This document shows positions 25,819 to 30,738 of a stretch of 36,007 nucleotides of DNA, one piece after another. Both the position numbers and the translations under genes were made by a program. Location: the NCBI GenBank assembly GCA_011176555.1, contig DUEF01000006.1, positions 1 to 36,007 on the forward strand, read 5' to 3'. The DNA comes from Caldilineae bacterium (GTDB lineage: Bacteria; Chloroflexota; Anaerolineae; J102). Positions within the stretch are counted from its first letter, which is position 1; every line of letters starts with the position of its first letter. Under the pieces are notes generated by a model that saw only the letters and a program-made list of their open reading frames with translations, was not told the origin of the DNA and made no database searches.

Positions 25819-25854
25819 CGCGTCCATCTCAAATCAATCATAGGAGTTTGTTTG

Positions 25855-26055
25855 ATGATGATAAAGGCCTCTTGCCCCTACTGCCACAACCGTTGGCTTC
25901 TTACCGACGAAACCATCGCCCTGGCAATCGAGAATAGCCCCAAGAAGGGGCGTAGCATCGGTGTGGAATGTCCGCGTTGCCGCAAACTTGTCAAGGTGGC
26001 GCGCCCCAAGCGTCCGCCGGCCCCGCCTCCGCAAGAAGAAGCGGAAGCAGGATAA
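25855..26055 (+). CDS. Small zinc-ribbon protein with Pro-rich acidic tail
   Basis: CPYC...18 residues...then CPRC form two CxxC pairs. AGGAG at 25842-25846 lies 8 nt before ATG 25855 (the ORF track begins at TTG 25852). Confidence 0.5.
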   Translation: MMIKASCPYCHNRWLLTDETIALAIENSPKKGRSIGVECPRCRKLVKVARPKRPPAPPPQEEAEAG

Positions 26056-26171: not shown

Positions 26172-26954
26172 CTACTTTCCCTGGAACGCCGGTTTCCGCT
26201 TTTGGAGGAATGCAGCTACGCTCTCCTTGTGGTCGGCGGTCTGCGCAGCGATGTCCTGCACCTGCGCCTCGTATTCGAGAGCGTCGGCCAGTGAGAGCGA
26301 GGCGGCTTTGTTCAGCACGCGCTTGGTCAGGCCGATGCCTTTGGTCGGGCCCAAGGCAAACTGGCGGGCGAGAGCGTGCACGGTCGGGTTCAGATCTGCG
26401 GCCGGGACCACCTGGTTCACCAAGCCCAGGCGCAGCGCTTCTTCAGCGCCCACCTTCTGACCGGTGGCCATGAGCTCGAACGCTTTCGCTGGCCCCACCA
26501 ACTGCTGCAAAAACCAACTCACGCCACTATCTGGGGCCAGGCCGATACCGATAAAGGCGGTGGTCAATGACGCTCGCTCGGAGGCAACTCGCAGGTCGGT
26601 GGCCAGAGCGATGCCCAATCCCGCGCCAGCGGCCACGCCGTTGATCTTGCCAATGACCGGTTTTTCCAGCGCTCGCAACGCCAAAATAACGCGATTATAA
26701 CCCTGTCGCACATGATCCCCGACCGTCAAAGACGCTTCCGCTGTCAGAAATTCCGTCAGATCCTGCCCGGCGCTAAATCCTCGGCCCGCGCCGGTGAGCA
26801 CCACACAGCGCACGGCATCGTCGCTGGCGCATTGTTTGAGCGCCGCCAACAGTTCCCTGGTCATCGTCACCGTAAAGGCGTTGAGCCTGTCCGGACGATG
26901 AAGGGTGATGGTGGCGATGTTGTCGGTGATTTCTGTGAGGATGGTTTTGGGCAT
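26172..26954 (-). CDS. Enoyl-CoA hydratase/isomerase (crotonase) family protein
   Basis: ITLHRPDRLNAF...VVLTGAGRGFSAGQDL...INGVAAGAGLGIALATDLRVA is the crotonase fold. ATG at 26954 (MPKTILTEI) is preferred to the ORF-track start at 27035, which lies in a repeat. Confidence 0.85.
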   Translation of the reverse strand: MPKTILTEITDNIATITLHRPDRLNAFTVTMTRELLAALKQCASDDAVRCVVLTGAGRGFSAGQDLTEFLTAEASLTVGDHVRQGYNRVILALRALEKPVIGKINGVAAGAGLGIALATDLRVASERASLTTAFIGIGLAPDSGVSWFLQQLVGPAKAFELMATGQKVGAEEALRLGLVNQVVPAADLNPTVHALARQFALGPTKGIGLTKRVLNKAASLSLADALEYEAQVQDIAAQTADHKESVAAFLQKRKPAFQGK

Positions 26955-26965
26955 GATGTTCGGGG

Positions 26966-27035
26966 GGATATTGGATATTGGGTATTGGCGGTGACGTGAA
27001 TACCCAGTATCAATATCTAATACCCAGATATCCAA
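26966..27035. repeat. Heptanucleotide repeat block arranged as an imperfect inverted repeat
   Basis: GGATATT GGATATT GGGTATT (26966-86) faces AATACCC..AATATC..AATACCC AGATATCC (26999-27033). GGGTATT/AATACCC pair across a 12-nt loop. Confidence 0.65.
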
Positions 27036-27680
27036 TCACTTCCTGCCATTCAGTTGAAAAAACTGCTCGGCCACCTCAATCATCTGCTCCTGTGTGGCCA
27101 GCATACGCCAATCTTTGACTGTGCTGATGGAGGTGTCGGCGACGCCTTTGACCGGTCGCACCCAGCTCATGATGTAACCGGTGATGGCGGCTTCGTCGTC
27201 GGAAAGTAGCAACATGCTAAGATCGGCGTCGTAGCTGTGATAGGTGCGCAATAGCCATACGGGTTTGACATGAGGATGTTCGGGCAGAGACCAGATGGCG
27301 TCGAACGCCGCGCGGTCATAGCCGGGCGTCAACACGATGCGAACCGTGGCGGCGAACAGGCCGCGATTCCCGGCGGCGGCAATGGGGATGTCCATCAGAT
27401 GTGCGATGTGCGCCATGCCGCCAAAGGAGAGGGCGGCGCGGGTGCCGATCACGCCGAGAGCGTCGCGCACAACATCAATCAAAAAATCATCCAGCCGGTG
27501 CAACTCCGAAACCAGGCAGACAATTCGCAAATCGGCGCGAGCGCGCAGCCAATTGACCCACAAGGGCGTCACACAGGGGCCATCGTAGTTTTGCAGGCGT
27601 TCCAACACTTCCTCGCGCGCGATTTCGTCTTGGCCGCTGCGTATGTTGGCATCGATAATGGCGATGGTGCCATTGCTCAT
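27036..27680 (-). CDS. Hypothetical protein with two Lrp/AsnC-ligand-binding (RAM)-like half-domains, no HTH
   Basis: Two segments, RIVCLVSELHRLDDFLIDVVRDALGVIGTRAALSF and YDADLSMLLLSDDEAAITGYIMSWVRPVKGVADTSISTV, resemble RAM/AsnC_trans_reg repeats. GAGAGGA SD lies upstream. Confidence 0.45.
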   Translation of the reverse strand: MSNGTIAIIDANIRSGQDEIAREEVLERLQNYDGPCVTPLWVNWLRARADLRIVCLVSELHRLDDFLIDVVRDALGVIGTRAALSFGGMAHIAHLMDIPIAAAGNRGLFAATVRIVLTPGYDRAAFDAIWSLPEHPHVKPVWLLRTYHSYDADLSMLLLSDDEAAITGYIMSWVRPVKGVADTSISTVKDWRMLATQEQMIEVAEQFFQLNGRK

Positions 27681-27753
27681 TGGTCAATTCCTCTCAGTTG
27701 GTGTGTGTGCGGAAAGTTGTGAGAAGGTTGCGATCTGAAACGATGTCCAGCAA

Positions 27754-28011
27754 TCAGTCGGCGCCTGAGTCGTACGGGATGTCGACTGGCAACGCATCGA
27801 TCACCTGATAAGATTCGATCTCGTCAAGGCCGTCGTCGTCCAACGGCGCTTGCAAGGTGTATTCCGCCTCGATTACGTCTGCATCCGCCCGGCGGCGGTG
27901 GGTGGTGATCTTGATGCTGTTACGCAACAGCAAAACCAGCGCCGCCAGACCAAAGATGACGATGAGGAAGGAAAGGCAGATGAAGAAAAGGATGGCGGTA
28001 ATCGGATTCAT
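27754..28011 (-). CDS. Small single-pass membrane protein with acidic C-terminal tail
   Basis: 85 aa with TM ITAILFFICLSFLIVIFGLAALVLLL, then RRRADAD and an Asp/Glu-rich tail. Its GGGAG SD lies inside the last codons of the upstream ATPase gene, and the start is 6 nt after that stop. Confidence 0.5.
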   Translation of the reverse strand: MNPITAILFFICLSFLIVIFGLAALVLLLRNSIKITTHRRRADADVIEAEYTLQAPLDDDGLDEIESYQVIDALPVDIPYDSGAD

Positions 28012-28017
28012 CGGGGG

Positions 28018-30564
28018 CTACTCCCAGGCCGGAACGCGATCATGCGTGAGGCGACCGCGTGCTGATTCATAGCCGATCTCCCAGTAGGGCAGCCAGGCCA
28101 ACGCCACCAAATCTACATCGATGTCAGCGCGGCGGGGTTTGACGAAGTAAGGCTCGATATGATCCAGGGTGTCGGCCCACTCCTCGGTGATTTGCTCCGC
28201 CTCCTGGGCGATGGTCTGCTGCACCTCTTCCATTTCTTCCTGAAGACGGGCGATTTCCTGCTTGGATTCTTCGATGTCGGCTTTGGCCCTTGCGGTCATG
28301 CGGCGTTTGGTGGCGGCGGTGGATAAGGATCGTTTCCGTCCGAAGATGCCAAACAAACCGGCCACGGTCTCTGCACCCGACACGATCTCCTCCATCTTGC
28401 GCGCGTCGTAATCGGCTTCATCCTCAGCTAACTCGCGCTCTTCTCGTTCCAACCTCGTTTCCAATTTATCCAATTGCCTGCGATATTTCTTGCGCATTTT
28501 GTCCACTTCATCGTCTCGCTTTTCCCGCGCAGCTTGCTGCATCCGCACTTTGAAATCTCGCTCCGACTCCCCCGGCCTGCTGTACATTTTGAGCACAGGA
28601 TTGTAGAGCAATTGCAAGCGCTGTTCGTGGTAGAGCCAATCGGAGAAATCTTTGGCGTACGATTTGAGCTCGCGCGTGCTGTTCAAGTCTTCCGGCACGA
28701 CGCCGAAAATAGCGTCCTCTTGCGGTCGCCTGTCCAGATCACCGGCATCGAGATCGATGGACGTTGCGTCTTCCCAGCGAATGACCGAACCGAGATCGTT
28801 GGCTTGCACCAATTTGCCGACGGGGAGCGTCTCATTGACCTTGCGGGTGCGGTCCACAAAGCTGGCGCTTCCCAGTGCGATCAGGGCGGGTTCATACACC
28901 AGATTCGTCTCTTTCACGTCCAGACGCTGATCCAATTCGTCTTCCAAGATGGCCAAGGCCCGGTTGGGACTCAAGCGCAGGGGCAGGAAGGTCTGGGGCA
29001 ATTCCGGAGGCAGGGCGGGCGGCGTGTCGCTGTAACCAGGCGGCAGGTCGGGTTCAGGTTCGGCGGCCGGAGGGACGACTGTGGCCGGTTTCACGTCTCG
29101 GGCTACGGCGGGGCGCGGCGTAGCCGCGGGGGCGGCTTCCAGCTCCAATTCGTCTTTGCGCTCCACCATCAGCTTGCGCACCTGGCTGCGGGTGAGCGGT
29201 CCGCGCAGGTAACTCATCGCCCAACGGGTGTTGTAGATGACAGGTTCGTCTTCGTGGACGTTGTGCAACAGAAAAACGCGGGAATCCAGACCCGAGATGA
29301 GGTTATCCAACTCGCGACGGTTCAAAGCGCCGCCTGCCGCAGACGCCGATTCCAGGCCATCCAACACTCGCGCTTTGTCCCGCTCCGTCTGCAATTTGCC
29401 GATGAACCAGGTGCCGGCGTTGCTCAGGCCCTTGTAATCGAGGTCCACCGGATTCTGGGTGGTGAGCATCATGCCCACGCCGAATGCACGCGCCTGTTTC
29501 ATCAGGGTGAGCATCGGTCTTTTCGAGGGGGGATTGGCCGTGGGCGGGAAGAAGCCGAACACTTCATCCATGTAGATGAGCGCTCGCAGGCTGGTGGTGC
29601 CGGATTGCTGGCGCATCCAGATGACGACTTGCTCCAGCAGCAGGGTGACGAAAAACATGCGTTCGGCGTCGCCGAGATGGGCGATGTAGAAAATGCTGTG
29701 GCGGGGCTTGCCCGAGGGCGTATGCAACAAACTGGCGATGTCCAGGGGCTGCCCTTCCAGCCATGAGGCGAAACTGGGCGATGCCATGATGTTATTCAGG
29801 AGCATCGCCAATTTGAAGCGCTCTTTTTCGGGATAGAATGTGTCTACATCGAACACGCCCAACTGACGCACGGGGGGATTCTGGATGGCGGTAATCAGTT
29901 TGGCCAGATCGAGATCCTCGCCCCGTCGCCATGCGTATTCGAAGATATTGGAAAGCAGGATGTGTTCCTGGCTTTGCAAGGGATCGGCGTCGATATCCAC
30001 CAAACCCAACAGAGCGCTAACTGTGCCCTGAATTTGTTCTCGCAAGACCTCTTCGTGATCATCCCAATTCAACGCTGGGGCTTTGAGCGAGGACAGGATG
30101 GATACTGGTATGCCTGCATCGGAGCCAGGCGTGTAGATGACGAATTCGGCGCTGTTTTTGAGCATGCGAATGCGTTCTGGCCCCTCACCCCAACCGGCCA
30201 GACCGTTGCGCCAGGTGTCGGCGATCTTGCGGGCATAGTCGGCTACTGACATGCTTTTGCGCCGGGCGTCGTCTACATTCACCCAGGGCTCGAAATCCTC
30301 TGGGCGCAGTTCGGGAAAGGTGAGCAACAGGTTGGTGATGTCACCCTTGGGGTCGATGATGAGGGCCGGCACATTATCGATGGCAGCTTCTTCCAATAGA
30401 TCGATGCACAGGCCGGTTTTCCCTGATCCGGTCATGCCGACGCAGACAGCGTGCGTGGTGAGGTCGCGAGCATCATACATCACCAGATCATCGGTGATCT
30501 CGCCCGCTTTGAGATCGTATTCTTTGCCCAGATAAAAGGCGCCGAGTTTTTCAATGGGTTGCAT
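28018..30564 (-). CDS. HerA/FtsK-like P-loop ATPase (DUF87-like) with Pro-rich linker and long C-terminal coiled coil
   Basis: LTTHAVCVGMTGSGKTGLCIDLLEE (Walker A after a HerA-like barrel lead-in), LRALIYMDEVFGFFP (Walker B), Pro-rich PPAAEPEPDLPPGYSDTPPALPPELP, and heptad-like KRDDEVDKMRKKYRRQLDKLETRLEREERELAEDEADYDARK. Confidence 0.75.
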   Translation of the reverse strand: MQPIEKLGAFYLGKEYDLKAGEITDDLVMYDARDLTTHAVCVGMTGSGKTGLCIDLLEEAAIDNVPALIIDPKGDITNLLLTFPELRPEDFEPWVNVDDARRKSMSVADYARKIADTWRNGLAGWGEGPERIRMLKNSAEFVIYTPGSDAGIPVSILSSLKAPALNWDDHEEVLREQIQGTVSALLGLVDIDADPLQSQEHILLSNIFEYAWRRGEDLDLAKLITAIQNPPVRQLGVFDVDTFYPEKERFKLAMLLNNIMASPSFASWLEGQPLDIASLLHTPSGKPRHSIFYIAHLGDAERMFFVTLLLEQVVIWMRQQSGTTSLRALIYMDEVFGFFPPTANPPSKRPMLTLMKQARAFGVGMMLTTQNPVDLDYKGLSNAGTWFIGKLQTERDKARVLDGLESASAAGGALNRRELDNLISGLDSRVFLLHNVHEDEPVIYNTRWAMSYLRGPLTRSQVRKLMVERKDELELEAAPAATPRPAVARDVKPATVVPPAAEPEPDLPPGYSDTPPALPPELPQTFLPLRLSPNRALAILEDELDQRLDVKETNLVYEPALIALGSASFVDRTRKVNETLPVGKLVQANDLGSVIRWEDATSIDLDAGDLDRRPQEDAIFGVVPEDLNSTRELKSYAKDFSDWLYHEQRLQLLYNPVLKMYSRPGESERDFKVRMQQAAREKRDDEVDKMRKKYRRQLDKLETRLEREERELAEDEADYDARKMEEIVSGAETVAGLFGIFGRKRSLSTAATKRRMTARAKADIEESKQEIARLQEEMEEVQQTIAQEAEQITEEWADTLDHIEPYFVKPRRADIDVDLVALAWLPYWEIGYESARGRLTHDRVPAWE

Positions 30565-30707: not shown

Positions 30708-30738
30708 AAAAAGAAGCGCGGGAGCATGCCCGCGCTTC
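30708..30738 (-). terminator. Rho-independent terminator of ppk2
   Basis: GAAGCGCGGG (30713-22) pairs perfectly with CCCGCGCTTC (30729-38) across a 6-nt loop. The A-run at 30708-12 gives a U-tail on the minus strand. Confidence 0.75.

Follow-up and report, generated by a model that had tools for sequence, protein, structure and literature searches.

The stretch of DNA considered here, 36,007 nucleotides of contig DUEF01000006.1 from a Caldilineae bacterium (hereafter the window, meaning this stretch at its full length), carries on its minus strand a run of genes arranged in the order PPK2 polyphosphate kinase, an 848-aa ATPase, an 85-aa membrane protein, a 214-aa protein and an enoyl-CoA hydratase (Table 1). 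The original prediction for this locus, made from the sequence alone, described the three middle products as a HerA/FtsK-like ATPase with a coiled-coil tail, a single-transmembrane protein with an acidic tail and a tandem RAM-like protein, and related them to the pairings of such ATPases with small effector-like partners in conflict and translocation systems, without recognising this particular trio. The three open reading frames (ORFs), the motifs named in them and the domain assignments are all borne out by our analysis. A recurring three-part system is not supported: no gene cluster is common to the 80 loci of ATPase orthologues that were compared, and distant homologues of the 214-aa protein are encoded elsewhere. 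The reading that we favour, with moderate confidence, is that of a stand-alone ATPase family which is accompanied here by a clade-specific small partner and followed by unrelated third and fourth genes.

Table 1. Genes and features of the locus in window coordinates.
Feature	Position	Strand	Basis or remark
848-aa ATPase, ORF	28018-30564	minus	ORF call
85-aa small membrane protein, ORF	27754-28011	minus	ORF call
214-aa tandem RAM-like protein, ORF	27036-27680	minus	ORF call
Enoyl-CoA hydratase/isomerase (PaaG-like), ORF	26172-27035	minus	PF00378 at 1.4e-60
Walker A (P-loop) GMTGSGKTG, residues 43-51	30412-30438	minus	each residue invariant in 62 sequences
Walker B LIYMDEV, residues 329-335	29560-29580	minus	Y331, D333, E334 invariant
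Pro-rich flexible linker, residues ~478-527	28984-29133	minus	pLDDT <50 at residues 480-504
C-terminal module, residues 528-848: beta-rich domain with inserted coiled-coil hairpin	28021-28983	minus	AlphaFold secondary structure
Antiparallel coiled-coil hairpin, helices 668-738 and 747-800	28165-28563	minus	AlphaFold model, 62-sequence alignment
Coupling junction (Shine-Dalgarno box, ATPase stop, gap, small-gene ATG)	28012-28028	minus	direct sequence reading
Intrinsic-terminator-like hairpin and T-run after PPK2	30713-30738	minus	10-bp stem, 8 GC pairs, then TTTTTGTTGG

The junction between the ATPase and the small gene reads TGG GAG TAG CCCCCG ATG, the GGGAG Shine-Dalgarno box of the small gene overlapping the last ATPase codons and 6 nt separating the stop codon from the ATG, exactly as originally noticed. 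Further downstream, a gap of 73 nt lies between the 85-aa and the 214-aa genes, the latter being preceded by a GAGAGGAA box, and a scan of the sequence found no terminator-like site between the three genes. On the upstream side PPK2 is closed by a strong terminator-like hairpin, so the ATPase probably heads a separate transcription unit.

Architecture of the ATPase and its place among ring motors

The family alignment was built with 62 sequences drawn from many phyla, which share 47-67% identity with the window protein. Both nucleotide-binding motifs pointed out in the original prediction, namely Walker A VCVGMTGSGKTG (residues 40-51) and the Walker B stretch, fall into invariant columns of this alignment; C-terminal to Walker B, R359, a candidate arginine finger, and the sensor block Q370-N371-P372 are invariant as well. 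Because Walker A, D333/E334, R359 and Q370-N371-P372 have all been kept, the ATPase looks catalytically intact and active. The same alignment served as input for an AlphaFold model of good overall quality (predicted local distance difference test, pLDDT, 89.7; predicted template modelling score, pTM, 0.80), in which a beta hairpin at the N-terminus (residues 9-31, strands 9-17 and 22-31), without a HAS barrel, leads into the ATPase core of residues 39-470. The distance from the N-terminus to the P-loop stays within 34-44 residues in all 62 family members. The Pro-rich linker, also foreseen in the original prediction, appears in the model as its sole long low-confidence stretch; across the family it measures 50-100 residues and is the least conserved region.

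The C-terminal coiled-coil region, estimated earlier at ~300 aa, corresponds to the final 320 aa and does hold a long helical hairpin. In the model this module is composed of a beta hairpin (residues 550-587), a helix (630-647), the two hairpin helices and closing strands (804-845). Profile searches of Pfam, NCBIfam, PADLOC and PHROGs gave no match to it, and it is present at full length in family members of all phyla sampled. The hairpin helices measure 75 +/- 1.5 and 73 +/- 2.6 residues in the 62 sequences, although the sequences themselves drift, and their length gives an estimate of ~10 nm for the hairpin. Residues 739-746 at its tip are modelled with low confidence. The tip as a whole (residues 739-760, net charge +7) consists of a hydrophobic Gly-rich stretch followed by a basic Ser/Thr-rich one, a motif common to the family which in the window protein reads ...AGLFGIFGRKRSLSTAATKRRMTARAK... 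No transmembrane segment is predicted from the sequence of the ATPase.

Comparison of the model with the Protein Data Bank (PDB) by means of Foldseek returned hexameric HerA translocases as top matches (9x1m, 4d2i, 8wiv and 7wrw; E ~1e-12, template modelling (TM) score to target 0.43-0.55), the highest TM score to target (0.71) being given by the DndH motor domain 7es4, while in the viral structure library a DUF853/HerA_C-type protein ranks first (TM score to target 0.60). Neither the single sequence nor the family profile retrieved a closely related solved structure from the PDB; the closest entry is the HerA central domain 8wiv (E 9e-6 for the sequence alone and 1e-7 with the family profile), matched over the Walker B/QNP region. 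Searches of Pfam, NCBIfam, PADLOC and PHROGs yielded generic P-loop or partial HerA matches only. Thus PF01935 (DUF87) reaches 24.0 bits (cut-off 23.2), covering residues 31-88 only and 53 of the 220 profile positions, and this match is generic, since the model also passes on the true FtsK of the same genome. The NCBIfam HerA equivalogs reach 16-21 bits with cut-offs of 800-970, the NCBIfam CedD, CedB, HerA and TraD models match partially and far under their cut-offs, PF05872, TrwB and AAA_10 are all sub-threshold, and the PADLOC HerA and mad8 models give weak, partial matches (E 1e-9 to 1e-10).

With HerA of the HerA-NurA type (archaeal and Deinococcus proteins; 4d2i, 9x1m and 7wrw) the ATPase shares the RecA-like core, Walker A and B and the QNP block. 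It differs in that a single beta hairpin, and no HAS barrel, precedes its Walker A, which starts at residue 43, in that neither a NurA, Sir2, DUF4297 or TdpB gene in the window nor a partner common to the 80 loci accompanies it, and in that the extra 320-aa coiled-coil module is not present in HerA. As the HAS barrel and a nuclease partner are both lacking and the equivalog models stay far below threshold, the ATPase is placed outside HerA proper. A second comparison concerns YjgR/DUF853 (PF05872 HerA_C; 11kk), which likewise has its P-loop near the N-terminus, no HAS barrel and a stand-alone gene. Yet PF05872 gives the window ATPase 16.4 bits against a cut-off of 22 (12.6 in the genome scan), though a few relatives do pass, narrowly; the ATPase family profile matches 11kk over the P-loop only (E 0.005); and YjgR, of ~500 aa, is devoid of both the linker and the coiled-coil module. 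No established function for YjgR was found in the literature.

Several other assignments were tried and rejected. Membership in FtsK/SpoIIIE is contradicted by the lack of a PF01580 match and of a transmembrane segment, and the role of an FtsK substitute by separate true FtsK genes in all 41 related genomes. For the coupling and VirB4-type ATPases of type IV secretion systems, TrwB_AAD_bind reaches 18.5 bits against 20.5, the TraD, VirB4 and CD1115 models remain far below their cut-offs, no conjugation genes lie nearby and no close plasmid homologue was found. A known PADLOC defence system was discarded in view of the weak partial matches of the ATPase, the 85-aa and 214-aa proteins matching nothing there. 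The structural comparison upholds the HerA-clade fold, and the protein is placed outside HerA proper, DUF853, FtsK, the type IV secretion families and the PADLOC systems; nor does it fall in any characterized housekeeping family, which the original prediction had named as a finding that would speak against it. The most fitting description is that of a separate, uncatalogued branch of the HerA clade within the FtsK-HerA superfamily, with a C-terminal module of its own.

Distribution of the ATPase and of its neighbours

The family is large. A word-indexed search gave more than 8000 clusters at 90% identity, which is a lower bound, and when representatives at 50% identity were searched exhaustively, 7489 passed E<=1e-3 and 2088 passed E<=1e-30, most of the top 150 being full-length proteins of ~780-860 aa. 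A scan of species-representative genomes detected more than 580 ATPase loci, the best 80 of which made up the neighbourhood sample (71 of these 80 have downstream sequence); in these 80 the identity over the full length is 46-65%, except for one partial match at 81%, and across phyla it amounts to 46-57% over full length. Bacterial carriers belong to Chloroflexota, Nitrospirota, Planctomycetota, Acidobacteriota, Gemmatimonadota, Bacteroidota/Chlorobi/Ignavibacteria, Myxococcota, Actinomycetota, Verrucomicrobiota, WOR-3, KSB1 and Fermentibacteria, and archaeal ones to Bathyarchaeia, Methanofastidiosum and Methanomassiliicoccaceae. Each genome holds essentially one full-length copy, located on the chromosome. 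In the taxonomic family to which the window belongs (below, f1) 23 of 24 genomes have the ATPase, as do 37 of 268 genomes of high quality from the phylum (mostly of one class), 28 of 61 from the family of a Nitrospira genome and 29 of 61 from that of a Pelodictyon (Chlorobiaceae) genome. Taken together, the gene is common, strongly conserved and dispensable, and it has evidently moved between phyla and domains. An origin from mobile elements was rejected: the phage search found no homologue, and plasmids gave only remote DUF87 matches at 26-28% identity. No study of this ATPase family was found in the literature.

All-versus-all clustering of flanking ORFs revealed no neighbour gene constant across the 80 loci, the sharing being limited to single clades, and the immediate neighbours of ATPase orthologues carry mixed Pfam families. 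The only recurrent immediate neighbour is a gene of the phospholipase D (PLD) family, found at 7-8 loci of one Anaerolineales clade. It encodes a protein of ~365 aa with an N-terminal membrane anchor, matching PF13091 and the PADLOC models DrmC and DpdK, and precedes the ATPase, in the same orientation, at a distance of ~43 nt (L057:1367-2464; the same position in L059, L062, L063, L072, L079 and L087). We treat it as lineage-specific synteny. It is a second, different clade-specific companion of the ATPase. As a separate observation, the archaeal loci L042 and L070 (Bathyarchaeia and Methanofastidiosum) contain, 61-69 nt downstream of the ATPase, genes for similar proteins of 59-63 aa (..KFE.YKD.AG.YRFRL.A.N...), which may be YegP/DUF1508-like; a joint transfer of the ATPase and this small gene, as one block, is conceivable.

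These data bear on the proposal that the family is a single-gene anti-phage or anti-plasmid defence factor, the transmembrane protein serving in the window's clade as an abortive-infection effector. Its attraction lies in the motor fold, since the HerA-like core is that of Sir2-HerA (Nezha), DUF4297-HerA, TdpAB and the C-terminal domain of DndH, in the patchy distribution within families combined with identities above 50% between bacteria and archaea, and in the position of the PLD-family gene with its DrmC/DpdK matches in front of the Anaerolineales ATPases. The defence motors, however, are always encoded together with an effector or nuclease or fused to it and reside in defence islands, and the ATPase family has neither feature: no effector domain is fused even in the longer variants (ten of which were inspected and showed no informative extra Pfam domains), and, apart from the one PLD-bearing clade, mixed housekeeping and membrane genes adjoin the ATPase. 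A single-copy, strongly conserved gene that was found in neither phages nor plasmids and that is retained in nearly every genome of f1 also behaves differently from what this proposal implies, and we regard it as highly improbable.

The 85-aa protein shows a distribution of another kind. The single transmembrane segment and the acidic tail ascribed to it are confirmed from the sequence: one N-terminal hydrophobic helix is followed by the basic cluster RNSIK..HRRR and then by a strongly acidic tail, the distal part of which has a charge of ~-14. Given the basic cluster behind the helix, the tail would be cytoplasmic by the positive-inside rule. Pfam, NCBIfam, PADLOC and PHROGs contain no profile matching this protein, and its family comprises only 18 clusters in 5.8 billion proteins. 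The transmembrane core I-L-F-F-I-C-L-S-F-L-I-V-I-F-G is nearly invariant (ICLSF-IV invariant), and the acidic tail varies. Nucleotide changes in the core number 6 synonymous and 0 non-synonymous relative to L007 and likewise to L114, and 4 and 0 relative to L115, which identifies the ORF as a translated gene under purifying selection.

The gene is restricted to f1, and each copy examined lies directly 3' of an ATPase orthologue (the window, L001/L007, L010, L011, L013, L015, L028, L114 and L115), with gaps of 4-48 nt behind the ATPase stop in most loci and of ~200 nt in L115. The conservation of the neighbourhood that the original prediction counted on holds for four genera of f1, where the small gene directly follows the ATPase; it fails in four other genera and, outside f1, at all 71 of the diverse orthologue loci (0/71). 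With none of these 71 loci having the small transmembrane ORF, and with 18 clusters set against more than 8000, the ORF is absent beside nearly the whole ATPase family, a finding that the original prediction had itself listed as refuting it. On the ATPase tree it is found in three separate sublineages of f1 and is missing in the remaining ones as well as outside f1, for which one gain at the base of f1 and several losses offer the simplest history; having been lost repeatedly, the small gene is dispensable.

Whether such a gene is a partner at all may be doubted, and an unrelated lineage-specific ORF hitchhiking behind an ATPase that acts fully alone in this clade too is a minor though real possibility. 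It agrees with the loss of the small gene in at least three sublineages that keep the ATPase intact, and with the presence of unrelated lineage-specific genes (DUF4199, VanW-like, DUF364 and PLD-like) in the small-gene position of other lineages. A hitchhiker would not be expected, however, to stay at the ATPase stop in two subclades with different third genes, the 214-aa gene in one and a 300-aa gene in the other, never to be found away from the ATPase throughout its 18-cluster family, and to have its Shine-Dalgarno box inside the last ATPase codons. We therefore prefer a two-gene pairing of motor and membrane anchor in one clade, which seems plausible in the light of these sequence comparisons.

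Two observations on the small-gene position may be added. The subclade without the 214-aa gene has, after the small transmembrane gene, a conserved gene for a 300-aa protein (MKRA.S.SLGSSKRNKK...; L114:3466-4368, also L013, L015, L028 and L115) that is without a Pfam family and, in L114 and L115, shares 4 nt with the small gene. In L004 (8563-8741), L005 and L017, a short tandem-repeat stretch stands in the place of the small membrane gene, flanked by the ATPase and the 214-aa gene; its opposite strand, when translated, gives GQWSVVGG repeats.

For the 214-aa protein, the two RAM-like halves without a helix-turn-helix domain read from the sequence reappear in an AlphaFold model (pLDDT 88.6) as two beta-alpha-beta-beta-alpha-beta halves. 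The fold is that of the RAM proteins of PF01037 (Lrp/AsnC ligand-binding), from which the 214-aa protein differs by fusing both halves in one chain; PF01037 matches 27 of 34 family members (best E 1.4e-8), the window copy giving no match at E<=1. Structural matches at a TM score of ~0.5 are chlorite dismutase, coproheme decarboxylase and tandem ABM monooxygenases. At the level of fold and clan the model thus supports a tandem RAM-like member of the dimeric alpha/beta-barrel clan, which could be a ligand sensor or an enzyme. Its family counts 75 clusters, all from Caldilineales-like or Anaerolineae-type Chloroflexota. Homologues of ~50% identity adjoin aldehyde:ferredoxin oxidoreductase (AFOR) at two loci, or other genes, and never the ATPase; in L030 (6001-8270) and L033 (6001-9090) they are located just upstream of AFOR_N/AFOR_C genes. 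As distant homologues adjoin AFOR genes, there are hints of a role in aldehyde/aromatic-acid metabolism or in its regulation, which fits the adjacent hydratase. Within f1 the 214-aa gene usually stands between the ATPase and the hydratase, any of the three being able to be missing, and it was found at 0 of 80 ATPase loci outside f1.

The idea of a three-part conflict or translocation system, in which the ATPase would be the motor, the 85-aa protein the membrane effector and the 214-aa protein the ligand sensor, has to be judged against this record. Codirected genes with gaps of 6 and 73 nt and no terminator-like site between them suit it; the order is kept in the sister genus and in two other genera of f1 (L007, L010 and L011); and HerA-type motors do pair with effectors in defence, the PADLOC HerA and mad8 models giving the weak matches mentioned above. 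But the trio exists within a single taxonomic family, and it falls apart even there, the transmembrane gene occurring without the 214-aa gene in the g5 clade, the reverse being true of the g8 clade, and neither gene being present at L009 and L027. Outside f1 both genes are missing from the orthologue loci, the distant relatives of the third gene keep company with AFOR and other genes, the trio has no link to phages or plasmids, and an ATPase of such cross-phylum identity is far too conserved for a typical fast-evolving defence gene. We consider a three-part system very unlikely. The trio appears as a lineage-specific gene order with, at most, a two-gene pairing of ATPase and membrane anchor in it. 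The 214-aa protein and the hydratase most likely have metabolic or ligand-binding roles outside the motor and have stayed beside it through local synteny.

As for the remaining neighbours, the hydratase ORF as called has a TTG start directly at the stop of the 214-aa gene. Since its orthologues, like the profile matches in Pfam and NCBIfam, set in around residue 29 (MPKTILTEI...), translation probably starts at Met29, an ATG at 26951, which would leave a gap of 84 nt. Beyond the hydratase, the window contains at 25852-26055 a 67-aa double-CxxC zinc-ribbon gene that is part of the neighbouring SNF2-SWIM operon; its homologues of 72-75 aa are located just past the hydratase in L026 and L027, from two other genera, ~1.0-1.5 kb downstream of the ATPase. 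The position of the zinc-ribbon gene being common to other genera, the whole neighbourhood is syntenic within f1.

Proposed mode of action and significance

The preferred reading, a stand-alone motor with an optional clade-specific partner, faces a number of facts that weigh against it. Of the 18 f1 loci placed on the tree, 12 have the 214-aa gene behind the ATPase, and a clade-specific functional link between the two may exist. The patchiness within families (around Nitrospira and Pelodictyon roughly one sampled genome in two has the gene) and the sharing of the ATPase by bacteria and archaea at more than 50% identity imply horizontal transfer and dispensability, and conflict systems show the same pattern. 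Membrane proteins are more frequent among immediate neighbours of the ATPase than among other flanking ORFs (34% versus 21%, Fisher p 0.002), a weak trend obtained with crude ORF calls and non-independent loci. Finally, it is from fold and sequence chemistry that a hexamer, a DNA substrate and a membrane or nucleic-acid role of the arms are deduced, for a protein with no characterized close relative.

With this in mind, the ATPase subunit may be pictured as four consecutive parts: the two-stranded N-terminal hairpin, the ATPase core, the flexible Pro-rich tether and the C-terminal coiled-coil module. Such subunits would assemble, as the HerA-like model suggests, into a hexameric ring that could spend ATP on drawing a polymer (most probably DNA) through the pore at its centre, and the six tethered coiled-coil arms might hold the motor to a surface or to its substrate, the chemistry of the arm tips being compatible with either membrane or nucleic acid. 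In f1 the 85-aa protein, encoded directly downstream and coupled in translation, would serve as an optional membrane anchor or regulator, whose acidic tail, to judge from the opposite charges, may dock on a basic surface of the ATPase. The specific polymer substrate and the function of the arms are offered here as a tentative suggestion. A bolder and rather unlikely variant is that the family represents a new class of membrane-associated ring translocases, in which six arms of fixed length would either sink their hydrophobic, cationic tips into the membrane or take hold of DNA, and the 85-aa protein would, in the Chloroflexota clade of the window, be a dedicated membrane receptor capturing the arms with its acidic tail. 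If true, this variant would mean a new polymer-pumping machine in more than 10 bacterial phyla and several archaeal lineages.

With ~2000 clusters at 50% identity, the ATPase family is among the larger conserved protein blocks of unknown function, having a confident predicted structure and no Pfam model of its own. What the window adds is the conserved small membrane companion, the constancy of the arm length and the tip motif common to the family; the coupled and conserved membrane protein, even if confined to a small clade, is a hint that the motor works at the membrane. FtsK/HerA pumps are so far known from chromosome segregation, DNA end resection, conjugation, virus packaging and defence, and the function of a partner-less, six-armed HerA-type motor would extend this list.

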